NCBI RefSeq assembly: GCF_044324875.1
Contig: NZ_CP172185.1
Length of the DNA: 64,000 nucleotides
DNA from: Escherichia coli
Lineage (GTDB): Bacteria > Pseudomonadota > Gammaproteobacteria > Enterobacterales > Enterobacteriaceae
Strand: one strand, 5' to 3'
The notes beneath the pieces were generated by a model, which saw only the letters and a program-made list of their open reading frames with translations, searched no databases and was not told the DNA's origin. Within the stretch, counting starts at the first letter, position 1, and every line of letters begins with the position of its first letter. Below, piece after piece: positions 8,032 through 25,027 of this stretch. Made by a program: the position numbers and the translations under genes.

Positions 8032-8394
8032 ATGTTTCTAAACTATTTCGCGTTGGGAGTGCTGATCTTCGTCTTTCTGGTGATTTTTTATGGAATCATC
8101 GCGATACATGACATCCCTTATCTGATTGCCAAAAAGCGCAACCACCCCCATGCCGACGCTATTCATACAGCGGGCTGGGTGAGCCTGTTTACTCTGCATG
8201 TTATCTGGCCGTTTCTGTGGATCTGGGCGACGCTCTATCAACCGGAGCGCGGCTGGGGCATGCAGTCACATGTTGCGTCGCAAGAGAAAGCGACTGACCC
8301 GGAAATCGCCGCACTTTCTGACCGAATTTCCCGGCTGGAGCACCAACTCGCCGCCGAGAAAAAGACTGACTATTCCACGTTCCCGGAGATCTAA
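8032..8394 (+). CDS. yibI: Small inner-membrane protein, DUF3302 family
   Basis: 120-aa [24 protein letters not shown] with N-terminal TM segment; GAGG-like SD upstream; paralog of yiaW at 17175. Confidence 0.85.
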
Positions 8395-8396
8395 AT

Positions 8397-9533
8397 ATGG
8401 ATCTATTGATTGTTTTAACTTACGTGGCGCTGGCGTGGGCGGTCTTTAAAATCTTCCGCATTCCGGTGAATCAGTGGACGCTGGCGACGGCGGCGCTGGG
8501 AGGCGTGTTTCTGGTGAGTGGTTTGATTTTGTTGATGAACTACAACCACCCTTACACTTTTACCGCGCAAAAGGCAGTGATAGCGATCCCCATCACGCCA
8601 CAGGTGACGGGAATTGTTACTGAAGTCACCGACAAAAATAATCAGCTTATTCAGAAGGGCGAGGTGCTTTTTAAGCTCGACCCGGTTCGTTACCAGGCGC
8701 GAGTTGACAGACTTCAGGCTGACCTGATGACGGCGACGCATAATATAAAGACGCTGCGCGCGCAGCTCACTGAAGCGCAGGCCAACACCACCCAGGTTTC
8801 AGCGGAGCGCGACCGTCTGTTTAAAAATTATCAACGTTACCTGAAAGGCAGCCAGGCGGCGGTGAATCCGTTCTCGGAACGTGACATCGACGATGCGCGG
8901 CAAAACTTCCTCGCGCAGGACGCGCTGGTGAAAGGCTCGGTGGCGGAGCAGGCGCAGATCCAGAGCCAGCTCGACAGTATGGTTAACGGCGAGCAATCGC
9001 AGATTGTGAGCTTAAGAGCGCAACTTACTGAAGCAAAATATAACCTTGAGCAGACTGTCATTCGCGCACCAAGCAATGGCTACGTTACTCAGGTACTGAT
9101 CCGCCCAGGTACATACGCAGCTGCCTTGCCGCTACGTCCGGTGATGGTTTTCATCCCCGAGCAAAAACGGCAAATTGTCGCCCAATTTCGGCAGAACTCG
9201 CTGTTACGTCTGAAACCCGGCGATGATGCGGAAGTGGTGTTTAACGCGCTACCTGGGCAGGTGTTCCACGGCAAACTGACCAGTATTTTACCTGTCGTGC
9301 CAGGCGGTTCGTATCAGGCGCAAGGGGTATTGCAATCATTAACGGTCGTGCCCGGCACGGACGGTGTGCTGGGAACCATTGAACTGGACCCCAACGATGA
9401 TATCGATGCCTTACCCGACGGCATCTACGCCCAGGTGGCGGTTTACTCCGACCATTTCAGCCATGTTTCGGTGATGCGAAAAGTGCTGCTAAGAATGACC
9501 AGCTGGATGCATTATCTTTATTTGGATCATTGA
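8397..9533 (+). CDS. yibH: HlyD-family membrane fusion protein (periplasmic adaptor)
   Basis: 378-aa ORF, N-terminal TM segment, long coiled-coil region (RLQADLMTA...), starts 3 bp after yibI; paralog of yiaV. Confidence 0.85.
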
Positions 9534-9603
9534 GACTTATATCACCTGTGTTTTGCGTGAGCCTGAGCCATACTGATATTTTTCCTCGCACAAAGGACTC
9601 GGC

Positions 9604-10212
9604 ATGAAACTCGTCGGTAGCTACACCAGCCCGTTTGTACGCAAACTTTCTATTCTGTTGTTAGAAAAGGGCATAACTTTCGAATTTATTAATGAACTGC
9701 CCTATAACGCGGACAACGGCGTGGCGCAATTTAACCCGTTAGGGAAAGTGCCGGTGCTGGTGACCGAAGAGGGCGAATGCTGGTTTGATTCGCCGATCAT
9801 CGCTGAATATATTGAATTAATGAATGTCGCTCCGGCGATGTTGCCGCGCGATCCGCTGGAGTCGTTGCGGGTGCGCAAAATTGAGGCACTGGCGGATGGC
9901 ATTATGGATGCCGGGCTGGTATCGGTGCGTGAACAGGCGCGTCCAGCGGCGCAGCAGTCTGAAGATGAATTGTTACGCCAGCGGGAGAAAATCAACCGCA
10001 GTCTGGATGTGCTGGAAGGATATCTGGTCGATGGCACACTCAAAACCGATACGGTCAATCTGGCGACTATCGCCATTGCCTGTGCCGTCGGATATCTCAA
10101 TTTCCGCCGCGTTGCGCCAGGTTGGTGTGTCGACCGCCCACACTTAGTCAAACTGGTCGAAAACCTGTTTAGCCGCGAAAGTTTTGCTCGCACCGAACCG
10201 CCAAAGGCTTGA
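9604..10212 (+). CDS. yibF: Glutathione S-transferase family protein
   Basis: 202-aa ORF with GST N-terminal thioredoxin-like fold motifs. Confidence 0.85.
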
Positions 10213-15083: not shown

Positions 15084-16622
15084 ATGACCAATAATCCCCC
15101 TTCAGCACAGATTAAGCCCGGCGAGTATGGTTTCCCCCTCAAGTTAAAAACCCGCTATGACAACTTTATTGGCGGCGAATGGGTAGCCCCTGCCGATGGT
15201 GAGTATTACCAGAACCTGACGCCGGTGACCGGGCAGCTGCTGTGCGAAGTGGCGTCTTCGGGCAAACGAGACATCGATCTGGCGCTGGATGCTGCGCACA
15301 AAGTGAAAGATAAATGGGCGCACACCTCGGTGCAGGATCGTGCGGCGATTCTGTTTAAGATTGCCGATCGAATGGAACAAAACCTCGAGCTGTTAGCGAC
15401 AGCTGAAACCTGGGATAACGGCAAACCCATTCGCGAAACCAGTGCTGCTGATGTACCGCTGGCGATTGACCATTTCCGCTATTTCGCCTCGTGTATTCGG
15501 GCGCAGGAAGGTGGGATCAGTGAAGTTGATAGCGAAACCGTGGCCTATCATTTCCATGAACCGTTAGGCGTGGTGGGGCAGATTATCCCGTGGAACTTCC
15601 CGCTGCTGATGGCGAGCTGGAAAATGGCCCCTGCGCTGGCGGCGGGCAACTGCGTGGTGCTGAAACCCGCACGGCTTACCCCGCTTTCTGTACTGCTGCT
15701 AATGGAAATCGTCGGTGATTTACTGCCGCCGGGCGTGGTGAACGTGGTCAACGGTGCAGGTGGGGAAATTGGCGAATATCTGGCGACCTCGAAACGCATC
15801 GCCAAAGTGGCGTTTACCGGCTCAACGGAAGTGGGTCAACAAATTATGCAATACGCCACGCAAAACATTATTCCGGTGACGCTGGAGCTGGGCGGCAAAT
15901 CGCCAAATATCTTCTTTGCTGACGTGATGGATGAAGAAGATGCCTTTTTTGATAAAGCGCTGGAAGGCTTTGCACTGTTTGCCTTTAACCAGGGCGAAGT
16001 TTGCACCTGTCCAAGCCGTGCTTTAGTGCAGGAGTCTATCTACGAACGCTTCATGGAACGCGCCATCCGCCGTGTTGAAAGTATTCGTAGCGGTAACCCG
16101 CTCGACAGCGTGACGCAAATGGGCGCGCAGGTTTCTCACGGGCAACTGGAAACCATCCTCAACTACATTGATATTGGTAAAAAAGAGGGCGCAGACGTGC
16201 TCACCGGCGGGCGGCGCAAGCTGCTGGAAGGAGAACTGAAAGACGGCTACTACCTCGAACCGACGATTCTGTTTGGTCAGAATAATATGCGCGTGTTCCA
16301 GGAAGAAATTTTTGGTCCGGTGCTGGCGGTGACCACCTTCAAAACGATGGAAGAAGCGCTGGAGCTGGCGAACGACACACAATATGGCCTGGGCGCGGGT
16401 GTCTGGAGCCGCAACGGTAATCTGGCCTATAAGATGGGGCGCGGCATTCAGGCTGGGCGCGTGTGGACCAACTGTTATCACGCTTACCCGGCACATGCGG
16501 CGTTTGGCGGCTACAAACAGTCGGGCATCGGACGCGAAACCCATAAGATGATGCTTGAGCATTACCAGCAAACCAAGTGCCTGCTGGTGAGCTATTCGGA
16601 TAAACCGTTGGGGCTGTTCTGA
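15084..16622 (+). CDS. aldB: Aldehyde dehydrogenase B
   Basis: Track ORF trimmed to ATG at 15084 preceded by aaggaga SD; [15 protein letters not shown]..., ALDH catalytic Cys region. Confidence 0.95.
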
Positions 16623-16653
16623 TATAAGAAGCTGGTCGCATTGGGTATTCATT

Positions 16654-16738
16654 GCCTGATGCGACGCTTACGCGTTTTATCATGCCTACGGGGACCTGAC
16701 CGTAGGCCGGATAAGGCGTACACGCCGCATCCGGCATA
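16654..16738. repeat. REP-type palindromic elements downstream of aldB
   Basis: gcctgatgcgacgcttacgcg ... ccgtaggccggataaggcgtacacgccgcatccggc. Confidence 0.6.
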
Positions 16739-17174
16739 AACAAAGCGCACGTTGTTACAATTTACGTTTTAAACCTACGTGCGCAATAACCCAATAACCC
16801 AGACTACGCCAACAGAAGTGCGTTTCTGGGGCGTGTTTTGCCAGGAGTTTAATCTCGCGTTTCGATGGTGAGCGGGCGAACCAGACCATAAATCACCATT
16901 GGCGTTCCGAGGCCAATCAGCAATAAACGGTAGATAATTGAAGGTTTAATACGCTTAATCTGTACTGTGGATGTTTTACTGGAGTTATTCATTAGTTTGG
17001 CCAATAGTTCCATTATTTCAATATGATAAGCCTCGCACTGTTGAAAAGCCAGGCTGCACATTTCAGAAAGTATATAAAAAACAATATGTCGTTATATAAA
17101 TAAGGAAATTGCACCGCATTATGGTATTTCATAATATGCGTTAATTGTTCTTTTCTATATTCTCTGAGGGAAAT

Positions 17175-17498
17175 ATGTTCCTGGATTATTTTGCATTGGG
17201 AGTGCTTATTTTTGTATTTCTGGTGATATTCTATGGGATTATTATTTTACATGATGTTCCCTACCTGATTGCTAAAAAACGTAATCATCCACATGCCGAC
17301 GCCATTCATGTTGCTGGTTGGGTAAGTCTTTTTACGTTACATGTTATCTGGCCATTTTTGTGGATTTGGGCCACGCTTTACCGCCCGGAGCGGGGATGGG
17401 GAATGCAAAACCATGACTCCTCCGTTGTGCAACTACAACAGCGTATTGCCGGGCTGGAGAAACAGCTCGCCGACATCAAATCCTCTTCTGCCGAGTAA
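17175..17498 (+). CDS. yiaW: Small inner-membrane protein, DUF3302 family (yibI paralog)
   Basis: Track ORF starts at TTG 17145; likely true start ATG 17175 after gaggg SD; 107 aa [21 protein letters not shown]. Confidence 0.85.
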
Positions 17499-17503
17499 TA
17501 CTT

Positions 17504-18640
17504 ATGGATTTACTGATTATTTTAACCTATGTGGCTTTCGCATGGGCAATGTTTAAGATCTTCAAAATTCCTGTAAATAAATGGACCATTCCCACAGCGG
17601 CCCTGGGTGGCATATTTATTGTCAGCGGTTTAATTCTGTTAATGAACTATAACCATCCGTATACCTTTAAAGCGCAAAAAGCGGTTATTTCTATTCCTGT
17701 TGTCCCACAGGTGACAGGCGTGGTGATCGAAGTGACGGACAAGAAAAATACGCTGATTAAAAAAGGTGAGGTGCTATTTCGACTGGACCCGACGCGTTAT
17801 CAGGCGCGGGTGGATCGGCTGATGGCGGATATCGTTACCGCAGAACATAAACAGCGGGCGTTGGGCGCAGAGTTAGATGAGATGGCGGCGAATACTCAGC
17901 AGGCAAAGGCCACGCGGGATAAATTCGCTAAAGAGTATCAGCGTTACGCACGCGGCAGTCAGGCGAAAGTAAACCCGTTTTCAGAACGTGATATCGATGT
18001 GGCGCGGCAAAATTATCTGGCACAGGAAGCCTCCGTAAAATCAGCGGCGGCGGAACAAAAACAGATCCTGAGCCAGCTGGATAGCCTGGTGTTGGGTGAA
18101 CATTCTCAAATCGCCAGCCTGAAAGCACAGCTCGCGGAAGCAAAATATAACCTTGAGCAGACGATAGTGCGTGCGCCGAGCGATGGTTATGTGACCCAGG
18201 TACTGATTCGTCCGGGTACCTATGCCGCGTCGCTGCCGCTACGTCCGGTGATGGTGTTTATACCCGATCAGAAACGACAAATCGTGGCGCAGTTCCGTCA
18301 GAACTCCTTGCTGCGACTGGCTCCTGGCGACGATGCGGAAGTGGTGTTTAATGCTCTGCCAGGTAAGGTATTCAGCGGTAAGCTGGCAGCCATTAGTCCA
18401 GCCGTTCCCGGCGGAGCTTATCAGTCGACCGGCACCTTACAGACGTTAAACACAGCGCCGGGTTCAGATGGCGTTATCGCGACCATTGAACTGGATGAGC
18501 ATACTGATTTGAGCGCATTACCAGACGGTATTTACGCCCAGGTGGCGGTCTACTCTGATCATTTCAGCCATGTCTCGGTGATGCGCAAAGTACTGTTACG
18601 CATGACCAGCTGGGTGCATTACCTTTATCTCGATCATTAA
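17504..18640 (+). CDS. yiaV: HlyD-family membrane fusion protein (yibH paralog)
   Basis: 378-aa [23 protein letters not shown]..., same architecture as yibH. Confidence 0.85.
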
Positions 18641-19611
18641 TCTTCGCTTTCCGCCGTTTGTTCAGGCCGCAGTTGCTGCGACTGAGCAAGCTGGTGGCGA
18701 ATTTCACGCAGCATTTCATCCAGCACATACTGGACCCGCCAGGGCTGGTATTCCCGTTTACGGAAGATAGCCACCAGATCCAGCCACCATTCATACGGGT
18801 GCTGAAAGCAGGGCACCAGCGTGCCGTCTTGCAGGTCGCTCTGCACACTTTTGTCTGGCGCAAACACAATCCCCAGGTGATTTCGTGCCAGCTCCAGCGC
18901 AGATTGCGTGTTGTCGCAAACGTAATTTCCCTTCACGCGATAATCCCGCACCTCTTTACTCCCGGCGACGTTGAAGCGCCAGATATTCGCGTCGTCGATC
19001 ATCATCGAGTCGATCAAAATACAGGAGTGATGTTCGAGTTCGTCAGGACGGCTAATGGGATGTTTCTCAAGATAGCGCTGGCTGGCATAAGCGGTTACGG
19101 CATATTGGGTAATAAAACTGGCAACCAGCGATTCATCTTTTGGTTGGGCGTAGCTGATTAAAACATCACAATCATCGGGAAATTCGACGCCTTCATAAAA
19201 GGCATTACGCTCAAGATTGCAGGTTTTTAGCGATAAGGTGATATCACCGATATCTTTAATTTTATCGATTACATGTTTGGATAAATAGGTAATTATGCCG
19301 GTTGGTGCATAGATAGTGACCCGACCACGTTTCTCATGCTTATAATCTGCAATAAAATTATTAAGCTGCTCGTTTCTGTCCAGCATGTCGTTGATGTACG
19401 GTAACAGCACGGTGCCAAAAGGTGTGAGCATCAGCTGTCGGGTGGTTCGGTCAAAGACTTTTAAACCCACTTTTGATTCAAAATCAGCAAGATATTTGCT
19501 GACGTTGGCCTGTGCGATGCCAAGTACAGTCGCGGCATGGCTGATATTTTCACTGGCAGCGATTACCGAGATAATTTTTAACTCCCGGTACTTAAGTTGT
19601 AATTTTGTCAT
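18637..19611 (-). CDS. yiaU: LysR-family transcriptional regulator
   Basis: 324-aa ORF with N-terminal HTH ([27 protein letters not shown]); convergent with yiaV and overlapping it by 4 bp. Confidence 0.9.
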
Positions 19612-19734
19612 CGCAACAGCCCAATTATATATAATTTTATATATTACTATATAAATATGAATCTTGCACCGGATAAATTGTAAGCATTACTATGCCGACT
19701 CTTTTTTATCTTATTTTAAAATGGAATACCGGAC

Positions 19735-20475
19735 ATGTTAATTAACCGCAATATTGTGGCGTTATTTGCGTTGCCTTTTATGGCAAGCGCAACTGCTTCT
19801 GAATTATCCATTGGTGCTGGTGCGGCTTATAATGAATCGCCTTATCGCGGTTATAATGAAAATACAAAGGCAATTCCGCTGATTAGTTATGAAGGTGATA
19901 CTTTTTATGTTCGTCAGACCACGTTAGGTTTTATTCTGTCGCAAAGTGAAAAAAATGAACTTAGCCTGACCGCATCCTGGATGCCGCTGGAATTTGACCC
20001 TGCCGATAATGACGATTATGCCATGCAACAGCTTGATAAGCGTGATAGTACGGCTATGGCGGGGGTTGCCTGGTATCACCACGAGCGTTGGGGAACCGTG
20101 AAAGCCTCTGCGGCTGCGGACGTTCTGGATAACAGCAACGGCTGGGTGGGGGAGCTATCGGTATTCCACAAAATGCAGATAGGTCGCCTGTCGCTGACAC
20201 CTGCGCTGGGCGTTCTCTATTATGACGAGAATTTCAGTGACTATTACTATGGCATTTCAGAGAGTGAGTCCCGTCGTAGCGGTCTGGCAAGTTATTCCGC
20301 GCAGGATGCCTGGGTGCCCTATGTCAGCCTGACGGCAAAATACCCGATAGGAGAGCACGTCGTATTGATGGCGAGCGCAGGATACAGCGAGCTGCCGGAA
20401 GAGATTACCGACAGCCCGATGGTTGATCGTAATGAGAGTTTTACCTTTGTCACTGGCGTGAGCTGGCGTTTTTAA
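19735..20475 (+). CDS. yiaT: Outer-membrane protein, MipA/OmpV family
   Basis: 246-aa ORF with signal peptide and C-terminal ...SWRF beta-barrel terminus. Confidence 0.85.
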   Translation: MLINRNIVALFALPFMASATASELSIGAGAAYNESPYRGYNENTKAIPLISYEGDTFYVRQTTLGFILSQSEKNELSLTASWMPLEFDPADNDDYAMQQLDKRDSTAMAGVAWYHHERWGTVKASAAADVLDNSNGWVGELSVFHKMQIGRLSLTPALGVLYYDENFSDYYYGISESESRRSGLASYSAQDAWVPYVSLTAKYPIGEHVVLMASAGYSELPEEITDSPMVDRNESFTFVTGVSWRF

Positions 20476-20499: not shown

Positions 20500-20610
20500 T
20501 GGCCTACGCTCTCGCACCGACTTGTAGGCCTGATAAGACGTGTTAAGCGTCGCATCAGGCAATGTGCACCCTACGGTGGATGCGGCGCGAGTGCCTTATC
20601 CAACCTACGG
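20500..20610. repeat. REP-type palindromic elements at the yiaT side of the accessory locus
   Basis: gtaggcctgataagacgtgttaagcgtcgcatcaggc and ggatgcggcgcgagtgccttatcc units. Confidence 0.6.
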
Positions 20611-22575
20611 ATGGCAATGCTTTTCCTCATTCACCCAGATCCGCATTTCGCCTTCACCCCGGTTGGCCCAGCTAAACCACGGGATAAACGTCAGAATTTG
20701 CGGCTGGCGTTTGGCTGGCGCGCTGTCGTAATGCCACAGCGGTTGCTGCTCTGGATTGCTCTGTTCATACCGGTAACCCGGTGCCTGGATTAAGATCTTA
20801 TGGCTGAACAATCCCTTACCTTCAAATGTCGTAAATGGCGCATCGGCGGGCAGCCACAGGTTATGCAGTGACTCGCCGTTGTCGGCCTGTTCCAGGCAAT
20901 ACACCAGCGGGCCGCGCTGAATCGCCACTTTTCCGGCGACGTGACGCACCAGAGGGTTACCGTAAACGCGGCGTACCGGCATCGGCAAAGTCAGATTCAG
21001 CGTATCGCCCTCCTGCCATTCGCGGGTAATGTGCAAATACCCTTTACGAATATCCTGCTCGACCTCTTCCCCATTCAATATGATCTGCGGCTGTGTGCAC
21101 CAGTCCGGCAGACGTAAAGCCAGCGTATGACGCACCGGCTGGGGCGATTCAACCGCAATTGTCACCTGTTCCTGCCACGGATAGTTCCCGCTAACCCGCA
21201 GGCGCAACGTGCCATTTTCTACCGGCACTTCCATGCTGTTTCCTGCGTAGATGTTGATATACAACGCATCTTCACGCGGCGTGTAGAGATAATGACCAAT
21301 CGAGGTCAGTACGCGGGCGATATTTGGCGGACAACAAGCGCAGCCAAACCAACGCTGGCGGAGCGGTTTAACGTGATCGTAGATATGGTTGAATTTCAGC
21401 GATTTTGGATGTACTTCCAGCGGATTCACATAGAAGAAATGTTTGCCATCCAGTGCCATGCCGCCGAGCACAGTGTTGTACAGCGCGCGCTCCATCACAT
21501 CGGCATATTGACTGTCGCCTTCCATTTCCAGCATTCGCCGGGCAAACATCATCAGGCCGATGGAGGCGCAACTTTCAGCGTATACCGTGTCATTCGGCAG
21601 ATCGTAATCGCTGCTGAACGCTTCACCGCTGCTTTGTGAGCCAATGCCGCCGGTAATATATAACTGACGCTGGGCCATATTGTTCCACAGCCGCAGGCAA
21701 TCCTGACGCTTGCTTTCATCGTGACTTAAACGCGCCAGATGTGCGACGCCAGTCATCAGGTAGACAAAGCGTACTGCATGTCCGATGGCGGTTTGTTGCT
21801 GTGCGATGGGCAAATGCGCCTGGCTGTAGGCTTTATCTTTCACCATCCACGCCGGGCCGTAGGTGTGCCAGTGCGAGGTCTGCCCGCGCTTTTCATATTC
21901 CTGGTCGTAATAGTGCGGTTGCGCACCACGCTGTTCGACAAAATAGTTCGTCAGCGCCAGGTAGCGCGGCTCTTCGGTCACTTCATACAGGCGCATTAGT
22001 GCCAGTTCAATTTCCGGGTGACCAGGATAACCGTGTAACTTACTTTCACCTGGACCAAATACGCTGTCGATATGATCGGCCAGACGGCAAACCACTTCCA
22101 GCAAGCGCCGCTTGCCCGTGGCCTGGAAGAAGGCGACTCCGGCTTCAATCAGATGACCGGCGCAGTAAAGTTCATGACACTCCGCCAGATTGCTCCAGCG
22201 TTCTTCGGGCGCTTTTACCGTAAAGTAAGTATTGAGATAGCCATCTTCGCACTGGGCGGAGGCGATCAGTTCAATCACCTCGTCAGCAGTTTTTTCCAGT
22301 TCGGCATCCGGCTTCTGGCACAGCGACCAGGCTACCGCTTCCAGCCATTTGGCGACGTCGCTGTCCTGAAACACCATCCCGTAAAATTCACCGTCTTGCA
22401 GTCCTGCGGCAATGCGAAAGTTTTCAATCGCATGGCTGGGTTCCGCTTCTGGGATACGATCGTTCAAGGCGTCCCACTGATAAGGAATCACCACATCGCG
22501 GACCAGTTGTTGGTACTGACCGAGGAACGGATCGCTGACCGTCAGTTTATGCAGATCGACTTCCGAAATGTTCAT
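20605..22575 (-). CDS. Glycoside hydrolase, GH127-like (DUF1680; beta-L-arabinofuranosidase-type)
   Basis: Track ORF trimmed to ATG 22573-22575, preceded by TAAGGAG SD that overlaps the upstream transporter stop; 656 aa; Cys-rich motif WFGCACCPPN typical of the family. Confidence 0.75.
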   Translation of the reverse strand: MNISEVDLHKLTVSDPFLGQYQQLVRDVVIPYQWDALNDRIPEAEPSHAIENFRIAAGLQDGEFYGMVFQDSDVAKWLEAVAWSLCQKPDAELEKTADEVIELIASAQCEDGYLNTYFTVKAPEERWSNLAECHELYCAGHLIEAGVAFFQATGKRRLLEVVCRLADHIDSVFGPGESKLHGYPGHPEIELALMRLYEVTEEPRYLALTNYFVEQRGAQPHYYDQEYEKRGQTSHWHTYGPAWMVKDKAYSQAHLPIAQQQTAIGHAVRFVYLMTGVAHLARLSHDESKRQDCLRLWNNMAQRQLYITGGIGSQSSGEAFSSDYDLPNDTVYAESCASIGLMMFARRMLEMEGDSQYADVMERALYNTVLGGMALDGKHFFYVNPLEVHPKSLKFNHIYDHVKPLRQRWFGCACCPPNIARVLTSIGHYLYTPREDALYINIYAGNSMEVPVENGTLRLRVSGNYPWQEQVTIAVESPQPVRHTLALRLPDWCTQPQIILNGEEVEQDIRKGYLHITREWQEGDTLNLTLPMPVRRVYGNPLVRHVAGKVAIQRGPLVYCLEQADNGESLHNLWLPADAPFTTFEGKGLFSHKILIQAPGYRYEQSNPEQQPLWHYDSAPAKRQPQILTFIPWFSWANRGEGEMRIWVNEEKHCHP

Positions 22576-22585
22576 CTTGTGCTCC

Positions 22586-23986
22586 TTAAGGCTGTACATG
22601 ACGCTGACGCAGGTCGCTAGCAATGCGTGACATCATAGGGTTATTGAGTTTGCAAAAGCGGATCGCCATCGCCAGCAGCAGGTGGAATAGCGCAGGCAGC
22701 AATGTTTCCATTGCTGTGATCCCGCCAAGCGAACTGGCGGTCTGGTTTTCCACGCCTGGCTGGTAGGCGACAAAAATAAACAGCAGGCTGATGATCCCGG
22801 CGCTGGAGGCCCAGGCCAGCTTGATGAAAAACAGATTGAAGGCGAAGTTCATGCCGGAAGAACGTACGCGGGTTTTCCACTCGCCGTAGTCATCGGCAAA
22901 GGCCATCAATGAGAAGTGCAGTGGCAATGTGAAGCCAAGAATCACGCCATTACCGAGGATCACCGCCAGCCACAGCGTTTGATAAGCCGGGCCAGAGGGC
23001 AGGAACCACATCAACACCGCCAGCGCAGCGAGGAGCAGGTTGGTGTAGTAGTAAATTTTGACGGTATCGAAACGCCGCGTTAATGGGCTGACAATCACCG
23101 AGCCGATAATGGAGGCGAAGGTGACCATGGTGAAGAACAGCGACGTGTAGCCCGTACTGCCTTGTAAGACGTAGGTAATGAAGTACATATACCCACCGCC
23201 GCGAATATTAAAGACGTTAATCAGCAGGAAAGACATGACCAGCATCAGCAGCAGTTGGTCGTTGTTTCGCAGCCCGGCAAGATGTTCGCGCAGGGTAAAT
23301 TTCCCCATTGTGGAGAGTGGTACCCGTTCACGAACCCAGAAGAAACAGCACAGGAACATCACCACAGCGATGGCGCACAGCACGCCGACGCCCAGTTGAT
23401 AGCCGCGCGCGGCATTACCCTGACCGAAGAGATCCACCATCCACGGTAAGCCTACCGAAACCAGAAATCCCGCTACACCGCAGAGAACGAATCGCCAGGA
23501 CTGGCAGGAGATCACTTCATTGTGGCGGGTGGTCATGGTGTTGATCAGCGCGCAGTACGGCACGTTGATGGCGGTATAACCGACTGAAAGGAGCAGGTAA
23601 GTGCCGAACGCCCAGGCGATTTTTACTCCCATGCTGGCATCTGGCACGGTGAACGTCAGGATGCCGATAATGCCGATGGGAATGGCAATCCATAACTGCC
23701 ACGGACGAAAGCGCCCCCAGTGACTTTGCGTCCGGTCGGCAATGACGCCCATCACCGGGTCGGAGATGGCATCAAACACGCGCAGTGCAATAAACAGCGT
23801 GCCGACCAGCGCCGGAGTTAAGCCAAAAACGTCGGTGTAGAAAAAGGTGAGAAAGTTCATGATCAGGCAAGTTATTACGGTGCCGCCTGCGTCACCCAGG
23901 CCGTAGCCTATTTTTTCCCGTACAGATAACGCATCGTCAATTTTACCTTTAGCGATATCAGCGGTAGTAATCGGTGTAGAGGTCAT
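22586..23986 (-). CDS. Glycoside-pentoside-hexuronide (GPH) family cation symporter
   Basis: 466-aa ORF, about 12 TM segments, motifs GYGLGDAG and [14 protein letters not shown]. Confidence 0.85.
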
Positions 23987-24211
23987 AGATATTCCTCGTA
24001 AATAGGGAGCAATTTTTAGTTTTATTGCAATGACCTGATTAATTCTGCCGTGAACGGGAATATCAACAAGGCGAGAAAAGAGTAAAAAAAGGTGACGATT
24101 CCGACCTGAATTTAAAAGTGTGAATTGGATCAGGTGAAATTAATGTTTTTGATTAATAATCAAAAGGTAATGTGTTTGATCATTAATGAATAAGCGGGAA
24201 ATTACATATCA

Positions 24212-25027
24212 ATGCTCGAATTATCCATGACGTTACCGATTAAAGTGCAAAATGGTGGATTATTTATTTCCCGTGGCGTAGGGAGGCATCCGGCAAGGCG
24301 GCTGGAGTCATGGGAAATTATCTTTGTCGAAAAAGGTCGATTAGCGATTCAGGAAGAAGAGCGGATATTTCTGGTCGATGCGGGAGAGAGTTTATTACTC
24401 TGGCCGAACCGACAGCATGTTGGGGTAGAGGATTTTCCCGCCGATCTCAAATTTTACTGGCTGCATTTTGAGGTTAAAGCGCCGGACAACGACCCGCGCT
24501 GGCTCACTCATCTTAGCGTGCCGCAACAAACAAAGGTTGCCGATCGGCAGGCGCTGGTGGCCCTGTTTCGCCAGTTCTTAAGCGAACAGGAAAAGCATCA
24601 ACGCACTCCGGCGCTGGAGTTTATTGTGCTGCTGATTTTGCAGCAACTCACCCGTGACGCGCGTCTTGATGAACAGGCCGATGCCGCAGGTACCACGCTT
24701 GCCTGGAAAGCGCAGAAACTGATCCGCACGCAATATCATCGCCCGCTTTCCACGGCGCTTTTAGCCCGCGAGCTGTACTGCAATGCCGATTATCTTGGGC
24801 GCGTCTACCGGCGGGTGTTTCATCTGACGTTAACAGAAGCAATTCATCGCCAGCGAGTGCGCGAAGCCGAAAAGCTGTTAATTAGCGAAGCGCGATCGCT
24901 CACTGAAGTGGCTGCGTTGTGCGGGTTTAATGACGTTGGCTATTTCCGACAGATTTTTCGCAAACACACCGGTTTAACGCCAGCTGCGTGGAAGCGACGT
25001 TACAGCAAGGAACATATCAATTCGTAG
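24212..25027 (+). CDS. AraC/XylS-family transcriptional regulator (cupin sensor plus HTH)
   Basis: 271-aa ORF divergent from the symporter; C-terminal HTH region (TEVAALCGFNDVGYFRQIFRKHTG). Confidence 0.85.
   Translation: MLELSMTLPIKVQNGGLFISRGVGRHPARRLESWEIIFVEKGRLAIQEEERIFLVDAGESLLLWPNRQHVGVEDFPADLKFYWLHFEVKAPDNDPRWLTHLSVPQQTKVADRQALVALFRQFLSEQEKHQRTPALEFIVLLILQQLTRDARLDEQADAAGTTLAWKAQKLIRTQYHRPLSTALLARELYCNADYLGRVYRRVFHLTLTEAIHRQRVREAEKLLISEARSLTEVAALCGFNDVGYFRQIFRKHTGLTPAAWKRRYSKEHINS

Follow-up and report, generated by a model that had tools for sequence, protein, structure and literature searches.

The yiaW-yiaV gene pair, a two-gene operon of Escherichia coli, was found in the present study to lie in a block of four genes, yiaT-yiaU-yiaV-yiaW, which E. 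coli genomes either carry or lack as a whole and in which the yiaW and yiaT promoters carry twin elements that probably represent a shared operator design. So far as such comparisons go, this twin promoter/operator is a more specific link between the cassette and its regulator than the 4-bp overlap of yiaV with the convergent gene yiaU, to which attention had been drawn in the initial annotation, and we have fair confidence that the overlap itself is a passive by-product of a compact junction and not a conserved device. The operon, the four-gene block, the twin promoters, and the passive overlap together make up what we regard as the best explanation of this locus, and we favor it as a whole with moderate confidence.

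Regarding the gene content of the window, by which we mean the whole 64,000-nucleotide stretch of E. coli chromosomal DNA that was analyzed, the part from 16600 to 19800 was 100% identical to several RefSeq genomes, and in a strain that matches the window at 100% identity the RefSeq annotation gave exactly the yiaW, yiaV, yiaU, and yiaT coordinates listed in Table 1. The RefSeq annotations of K-12 MG1655 and O157:H7 were equivalent, with the same 4-bp overlap and a YiaW of 107 aa. The description of yiaWV as a second DUF3302-HlyD cassette was confirmed by Pfam and by the presence of its paralogues, yibI and yibH, in the same window. The spacing between the yiaW stop and the yiaV start is 5 nt. 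YiaU has the Pfam domains HTH_1 and LysR_substrate and YiaT the domain MipA, and the proposed divergence of yiaU from yiaT on its other side was borne out by their opposite strands and a 123-bp intergenic spacer. YiaW, YiaV, YiaU, and YiaT had zero matches to the PADLOC models for anti-phage defence, and an Rfam search returned nothing but REP/naRNA4-like matches, all of which were outside genes. The gene identities, the start codon of yiaW, and the overlap, when taken jointly, are virtually certain; each of them was in the reference annotation before and the pair had also been catalogued as an excludon, and this part of the description is, therefore, already known.

Table 1. Coordinates of genes and sequence elements in and around the yiaT-yiaU-yiaV-yiaW block and of the paralogous pair yibI-yibH in the window.
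Feature	Position	Strand	Description	Source
yibI	8032-8394	+	Paralogue of yiaW, 73% amino-acid identity	
yibH	8397-9533	+	Paralogue of yiaV, 77% amino-acid identity	
aldB	15084-16622	+	Aldehyde dehydrogenase	RefSeq
REP-type palindromic elements	16612-16785	unspecified	Sub-threshold naRNA4 matches, aldB side of the block	Rfam
Hypothetical gene	16849-16992	-	47-aa protein	RefSeq
yiaW promoter/operator	17071-17137	+	Three TATATA-type boxes, TATATAAATA-N6-TTGCAC (17093-17114), -10-like TAATAT (17132-17137)	Sequence comparison
Shine-Dalgarno sequence of yiaW	17166-17170	+	GAGGG, 4 nt before the ATG (17175-17177)	
yiaW	17175-17498	+	CDS, 107 aa, DUF3302 inner-membrane protein	ORF listing, Pfam, RefSeq
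yiaV	17504-18640	+	CDS, 378 aa, HlyD-family/EmrA-type periplasmic adaptor	ORF listing, Pfam, RefSeq
TTAA common to the yiaV and yiaU stops	18637-18640	both		Sequence
yiaU	18637-19611	-	CDS, 324 aa, LysR-type regulator	ORF listing, Pfam, RefSeq
Twin element in the yiaU-yiaT spacer	19626-19692	+	Boxes as in the yiaW promoter/operator and in register with them, TATATAAATA-N6-TTGCAC (19648-19669)	Sequence comparison
yiaT	19735-20475	+	CDS, MipA/OmpV-family outer-membrane protein, divergent from yiaU	ORF listing, Pfam, RefSeq
REP-type element	20527-20605	unspecified	naRNA4, 57.3 bits against a gathering score of 59.5, other side of the block	Rfam

Regarding the start codon of yiaW, the ORF program began the gene at TTG 17145, which would give a protein of 117 aa, whereas the ATG at 17175 with its GAGGG sequence had been considered the more plausible start in the initial annotation, and the Pfam profile, the paralogue, a comparison of 27 loci, and RefSeq all agree with the latter. 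Position 1 of the DUF3302 profile aligned to residue 3 of the ATG-started protein. The paralogue YibI starts with MFLNYF at an ATG that is preceded by an in-frame TAA 7 codons upstream, and the RefSeq start of yiaW is the ATG in the window-identical strain, in K-12, and in O157:H7. Among the 27 loci, which came from Enterobacterales, Ferrimonas, and Aeromonas, the protein began with MFL(D/N)Y at the ATG without exception, GAGG or GGAG was located 4-6 nt before this ATG in 26 (AAGAC was found in Rahnella, locus L023), and the would-be N-terminal extension was broken by in-frame stops in most relatives. A start at TTG 17145 has in its favor that it is the first possible one past the upstream stop; however, no Shine-Dalgarno sequence stands in front of it and the extension that it would add is not conserved as protein, and this start, which we consider to have next to no chance of being correct, was dismissed on the evidence above.

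The four-gene block was found in the majority of complete E. coli genomes, with yiaWV in 3800 and yiaUT in 3783 of the 5426 (approximately 70%), and it was entirely missing from UTI89, in which araD abuts aldB. The GC3 of the block (0.45-0.54) was lower than that of most of the flanking genes (0.50-0.68), and REP-type elements were located on both of its sides (Table 1). The joint presence or absence of these genes may reflect a single ancestral deletion, and not their function.

A probable link between yiaWV and yiaT was seen in their promoter regions. The 10-mer TATATAAATA occurred twice in the 64-kb window against an expectation of 0.04, both times on the + strand, at 17093 (82 nt before the yiaW ATG) and at 19648 (87 nt before the yiaT ATG). 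The regions on the yiaW and yiaT sides aligned without a gap over 83 nt, and the arrangement shared by both sides in E. coli, C. gillenii, and C. amalonaticus was TATATA-N7-ATATnT-N3-TATATAAATAnG-N4-TTGCA, with a -10-like box 16-17 nt further on. This extended pattern was detected at both positions in 11 of the 15 yiaWVUT loci (Citrobacter and Pseudocitrobacter), while the remaining four had a yiaW-side copy with one or two mismatches or, in the case of locus L019, a contig that ended before the yiaT side; it was detected at none of the 77 other loci that were fetched, every yibIH locus included. In Enterobacter, which has no yiaWV, a close variant of the element is kept in the yiaU-yiaT spacer, and the element was conserved only where yiaU was present.

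YiaU is our tentative candidate for the protein that binds the twin element, a prediction to which we assign slightly less than an even chance. It is consistent with the increase of 2.8 log2 reported for yiaT in a yiaU knock-out (PMC9068703), with the product name of YiaU in the MG1655 RefSeq annotation, transcriptional activator, and with the renaming of this protein as CsuR. YiaU also fits the LysR type in having an N-terminal HTH_1 domain, a LysR_substrate domain, and a divergent target, yiaT. In the literature, YiaU has been renamed CsuR or LpsR, with the 2022 name CsuR denoting a regulator of cell-surface properties; a later paper cites this 2022 work for yiaV. CsuR is reported to have a handful of SELEX targets with membrane and LPS functions, and the regulatory link from YiaU to yiaWV may, therefore, already have been published. 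Counting against YiaU as the binding protein, a ChIP-exo analysis of YiaU in glucose M9 listed 10 sites, none of which was at yiaT, yiaU, or yiaW; neither yiaV nor yiaW is mentioned in the supplements of the LysR paper. Both yiaWV and yiaT/yiaU have been reported to be bound by H-NS and to have sigma-70 promoters, with the yiaWV promoter being constitutive (PMC3946193), and yiaU has been described as silent except under bicyclomycin (PMC9308461). The AT-rich boxes of the twin element could instead be sites for H-NS or another factor. In the mechanism that we propose, yiaWV belongs to a block with twin yiaW and yiaT promoters, the common boxes of which would most plausibly serve as the operator for YiaU (CsuR) within a region reportedly bound by H-NS.

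The overlap of the yiaV stop with convergent yiaU was recovered as described originally, and the TTAA was found in the ORF listing, the sequence, and RefSeq; TAA at 18638-18640 is the stop of yiaV on the + strand, and TTA at 18637-18639 reads on the - strand as TAA, the stop of yiaU. This was the only overlapping pair among the 6 convergent gene pairs in the annotated part of the window covered by the RefSeq comparison. The overlap is statistically unremarkable because a 4-bp convergent stop-stop overlap needs just YTAR. It was fixed in the E. coli strains compared (K-12, O157:H7, and the window strain), and the junction as a whole varied across Citrobacter and Pseudocitrobacter, the extremes being an overlap of 7 bp and a gap of 48 bp: the 4-bp overlap was TTAA in E. 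coli and C. amalonaticus and CTAA in Pseudocitrobacter, two Citrobacter species in which yiaV ends in TGA had the 7-bp overlap, and species of the C. freundii complex had gaps of 16-48 bp. The C-terminus of YiaV was invariant in all relatives and was the same in YibH, which has no overlapping neighbor. The LysR_substrate domain of YiaU ends at residue 302, the last 20-22 residues or so are outside the Pfam domains, and this C-terminal tail differed in both length and sequence from species to species. Furthermore, yiaU-yiaT was found without yiaWV in Enterobacter and Lelliottia, in which yiaU faces aldB. The overlap looks passive because the end of YiaV is invariant, the tail of YiaU is variable, the junction varies, and yiaU-yiaT exists without yiaWV. 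Since a yiaV that ends in CAY-TAR always places a TAR stop in one of the frames of the complementary strand, YiaU in E. coli may have lost an earlier stop and may now read on to the obligatory stop opposite the CAY-TAA of yiaV.

The initial annotation had also proposed that convergent transcription might couple the expression of the cassette and the regulator. Overlapping yiaV and yiaU transcripts are indeed on record, with ExcludonFinder (NAR 2025, PMC12288877) listing yiaU-yiaV among 165 convergent excludons of MG1655, each of which was detected in half or more of the 58 MG1655 RNA-seq data sets. An overlap of this kind is unavoidable because an mRNA is full-length only if it includes the stop codon of its gene, and it is for the same reason impossible that two full-length transcripts both end before the overlap. 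The pair resembles the other catalogued convergent excludons in its overlapping 3' transcript ends and differs in that this is a trivial consequence of coding sequences that themselves overlap. If the 4-bp overlap were a selected excludon that acts through the collision of RNA polymerases or the RNase III cleavage of a 3' duplex, the expression of the cassette and that of the regulator would be mutually exclusive or linked by feedback. We consider this unlikely. The catalogue entry and the fixation of the overlap within E. coli are compatible with a selected device, as is the result of a consensus scan and a hairpin/U-tract scan, in which no convincing intrinsic terminator was found near the junction on either strand; the sole candidate, at 18812-18855 on the + strand, was a weak hairpin with CTTTTGTC after it, and C-over-G-rich stretches of potential use to Rho begin just 240-320 nt beyond each stop. 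Moreover, activation of the yiaW promoter by YiaU, if it occurs, would be expected to bring about negative feedback by way of read-through into yiaU. However, any convergent pair with overlapping coding sequences qualifies as an excludon by definition, yiaU and yiaV are both silenced or expressed at a low level, Citrobacter does not conserve the junction, the overlapped yiaU codons specify the variable tail outside the LysR domains, and yiaU in Enterobacter simply faces aldB. According to the passive reading that we prefer, the lack of a terminator between the genes leaves the mRNAs of yiaWV and yiaU with overlapping 3' ends, and this may add some mutual interference, yet would not be the main coupling between the regulator and the cassette.

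Regarding the proteins encoded by the cassette, YiaW matched DUF3302 (Pfam PF11742) at 146.4 bits against a cut-off of 32 (E 2.7e-43), with positions 1-77 of the profile covering residues 3-79. Two of its segments are hydrophobic, its His/Asp-rich loop is conserved, and its C-terminus forms a short amphipathic helix; its topology was ambiguous by the positive-inside rule. The DUF3302 family comprises 868 clusters at 50% identity and combines a very conserved core with a variable tail that ends in a short amphipathic helix. Insertions in yiaW (IS1 or aph) had no phenotype in macrophage assays, and the deletion of yiaW has been reported to increase Ca2+-mediated transformation efficiency.

YiaV was identified as a membrane-fusion (periplasmic adaptor) protein of the EmrA/MdtN-like kind, without a membrane-proximal domain. 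Its matches to the Pfam families CusB_dom_1, HlyD_D23, and HlyD_3 were all above cut-offs, and its best NCBIfam matches were MdtN (3e-32) and EmrA/EmrK (7e-32); its scores fell far short of the curated cut-offs for the EmrA/EmrK and MdtN equivalogs, with 110.6 versus 390.8 bits for TIGR00998 and 111.8 versus 376 bits for NF007785. The best sequence match in the PDB was E. coli EmrA (1.8e-11), and the best Foldseek match was EmrA in EmrAB-TolC (E 5e-20, TM 0.61/0.66). The AF2 model (pLDDT 75.6) comprised helices at 2-19 and 28-50, a hairpin of two helices of approximately 57 residues each (97-152 and 161-218) that was EmrA-like in length in the model and by Foldseek, lipoyl-like strands, a barrel (250-350), and a helix at 355-374. 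The N-terminal anchor consists of the two hydrophobic helices with a Lys-rich loop between them, which is one helix more than in AaeA, and this second N-terminal TM helix is unusual. Among 27 partner adaptors, the most conserved parts were the TM hairpin ending in MNYNHP and the C-terminal helix RK.LLRM.SW..Y, while the length of the alpha-hairpin varied by 30-60 residues. In TCDB, YiaV is entered as 8.A.1.1.4, 'uncharacterized'.

The best match of YiaV in both PDB sequence and fold comparisons was EmrA of the MFS-type tripartite pump EmrAB-TolC (PDB 8zal/8zar and 4tko), with which it shares an inner-membrane anchor, a lipoyl domain, a long alpha-hairpin, a beta-barrel, and the lack of a membrane-proximal domain. 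The two proteins are only approximately 20% identical, the score of YiaV was far below the curated EmrA/EmrK cut-off, and YiaV, unlike EmrA, has the second N-terminal TM helix, the conserved C-terminal helix, and no emrB-like gene adjoining it. The aaeR/aaeXAB system is similar to yiaWV in that the gene for a small membrane protein is directly upstream of the gene for an EmrA-like adaptor, with a LysR gene nearby, and AaeA aligned with YiaV (1e-14), though only from the second TM helix of YiaV onward. In contrast to yiaWV, aaeXAB includes a transporter gene, which encodes the PET-family pump AaeB, and aaeR is divergent from aaeXAB, whereas yiaU is convergent with yiaWV. AaeX (DUF1656) is not homologous to the DUF3302 of YiaW (hhalign probability 0.14%), and YiaW as an AaeX-like small subunit by homology was ruled out on this result.

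In the family as a whole, the DUF3302 gene was followed within a few nt by a gene for a HlyD-type adaptor at all scanned loci with enough sequence and in metagenomic relatives, and a few ORF calls with upstream starts overlapped the DUF3302 gene; for distant members of DUF3302, most of the metagenomic contigs ended too soon for the neighboring genes to be seen. No transporter gene adjoined the pair in the window or at approximately 80 loci from Enterobacterales, Aeromonas, Ferrimonas, and metagenomic relatives, and no conserved third gene was found beside it, the neighbors being otherwise unrelated housekeeping genes. One distant locus (L084) had the order OEP (TolC-like)-DUF3302-adaptor with gaps of 11 and 3 nt, and this OEP linkage was found at that locus only; a Serratia locus (L079) had a divergent LysR gene and the order DUF3313-DUF3302-adaptor.

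Several readings of what the pair does have to be weighed against these observations. YiaW and the membrane-embedded ends of YiaV would, in the mechanism that we propose, together make up the inner-membrane portion of an adaptor complex, which may dock to TolC or another outer-membrane factor, with the transporter being either encoded elsewhere or absent. A putative TolC-linked inner-membrane unit of YiaW and YiaV is, accordingly, a possibility that we put forward tentatively and at rather less than an even chance. Since the membrane-embedded parts are the most conserved, the pair itself is suggested to be the functional inner-membrane unit. This strong conservation in both proteins speaks against the view that YiaV is an orphan adaptor for a transporter elsewhere, of the MFS or PET/FUSC type (EmrB, MdtO, or AaeB), with YiaW as an accessory comparable to AaeX for AaeAB. 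Such a role is suggested by the nearest families, MdtN, EmrA/EmrK, and AaeA, all of which serve MFS or PET pumps, and by the order of a small membrane protein followed by an adaptor with a LysR gene nearby, which mirrors aaeR/aaeXAB; however, the lack of an adjoining transporter across the approximately 80 loci is unusual for efflux adaptors and the two small proteins are not homologous, and we regard the orphan adaptor as doubtful. We consider it less probable still, and offer it as speculation, that DUF3302 and the adaptor form a self-contained, transporter-less unit on TolC-type channels, in which the invariant His/Asp-rich loop of DUF3302 (HDIPY..HPH.DAIH) would be the active or gating part and the adaptor would contribute its two TM helices, MNYNHP, and the C-terminal helix, and that a duplication of the promoter/operator brought this unit, along with the outer-membrane protein YiaT, under YiaU (CsuR) control in E. 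coli and Citrobacter, with read-through from the activated cassette into yiaU acting as negative feedback.

A further reading is that yiaWV is a decaying duplicate of yibIH without a function of its own. The two cassettes have the same two-gene architecture, the same lengths, including a 378-aa adaptor, and the same N- and C-terminal motifs. They differ in GC3, which is 0.62-0.64 in yibIH versus 0.45-0.54 in the yiaWV block, and yibIH is present in UTI89, from which yiaWV is absent; moreover, yibIH has no convergent LysR gene and is without the TATATAAATA-N6-TTGCA element. In UPEC, urine induces yibI, and strains from which this gene was deleted competed poorly there, with a competitive index of 0.33 (PMC5404293); yibH serves as a neutral integration site. 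The absence of yiaWV from approximately 30% of complete E. coli genomes, its silenced or low expression, and the lack of a mutant phenotype for yiaW insertions would fit decay. However, both ORFs were intact and 96.7-100% identical across 3767 genomes, YiaV and YiaW of E. coli matched those of C. amalonaticus at 91-93% identity and have retained every residue that is invariant in the family, and the cassette has its own conserved promoter, which make decay highly improbable.

Taken together, the overlap noted in the initial annotation matters little for this locus, and the twin promoters are its more informative feature; coupling through the overlap is possible, but is not favored as the main connection between the regulator and the cassette. 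Both yiaWV and yibIH belong to the E. coli y-ome, and the pairing of DUF3302 with an adaptor without a transporter, the OEP-linked relative, and the twin promoters in common with yiaT provide handles for experiments on them.

The yiaT-yiaU-yiaV-yiaW genes (window 17175-20475) were found in approximately 3800 of the 5426 complete E. coli genomes, among which they were present or absent as one block. The block is absent from UTI89 (comparison locus L093), in which araD adjoins aldB and a Fic-family gene is located between aldB and yiaY, and an IS1-mediated deletion in FDAARGOS_943 (L092) extends from yiaY into yiaT. REP-type palindromes flank the yiaW-yiaT block on both sides, the best of which scored 57.3 bits against the naRNA4 gathering score of 59.5 in Rfam. 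In the strain of the window, the interval from yiaT to araD (20605-25027) holds genes for a glycoside hydrolase of family GH127, an MFS transporter, and an AraC regulator, which were also missing from UTI89. An IS3-family (IS1397) insertion of approximately 1.4 kb was noted within 16600-19800 in several otherwise identical RefSeq genomes (H1-H4 and H8).

Coordinates of features around the block in the window
Feature	Position	Strand	Remark
REP-type palindromes	16612-16785 and 20527-20605		Rfam naRNA4 matches, sub-threshold
47-aa hypothetical gene (RefSeq)	16849-16992	-	Inside putative remnant region 16755-17061

In the region between aldB and yiaW, Citrobacter amalonaticus (L002 4498-4812) possesses an intact small membrane-protein gene of approximately 104 aa, and the 3' half of the E. 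coli copy, on the minus strand, carries several deletions relative to that gene. The 47-aa gene annotated by RefSeq appears to be its truncated remnant.

Among relatives of the DUF3302-adaptor pair, a metagenomic locus (L084 263-2367) has an OEP (TolC-like) gene followed, after 11 nt, by the pair, and Serratia grimesii (L079 6234-9494) possesses a second pair with a DUF3313 gene and a divergent LysR gene directly upstream. At the paralogous cassette, yibF lies directly 3' of yibH in the window (9533-9604); in TUM1886 (L097 3417-9604), which is otherwise identical from yibF onward, genes for an RHS core protein, a hypothetical protein, and an Imm57 immunity protein are inserted between the two.

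The alignment of DUF3302-associated adaptors (A4, columns ~113-200; L074, L078, L081, and L085) shows that Ferrimonas, Aeromonas, and the OEP-linked relative have an alpha-hairpin shorter by 30-60 residues, with both membrane-proximal ends conserved. The DUF3302 alignment (A2) revealed a near-invariant His/Asp-rich motif, HDIPY.IAK.R.HPH.DAIH, at YiaW residues 25-45 (window 17247-17309), in the loop joining the two hydrophobic segments, and this motif resembles a metal- or proton-binding site.
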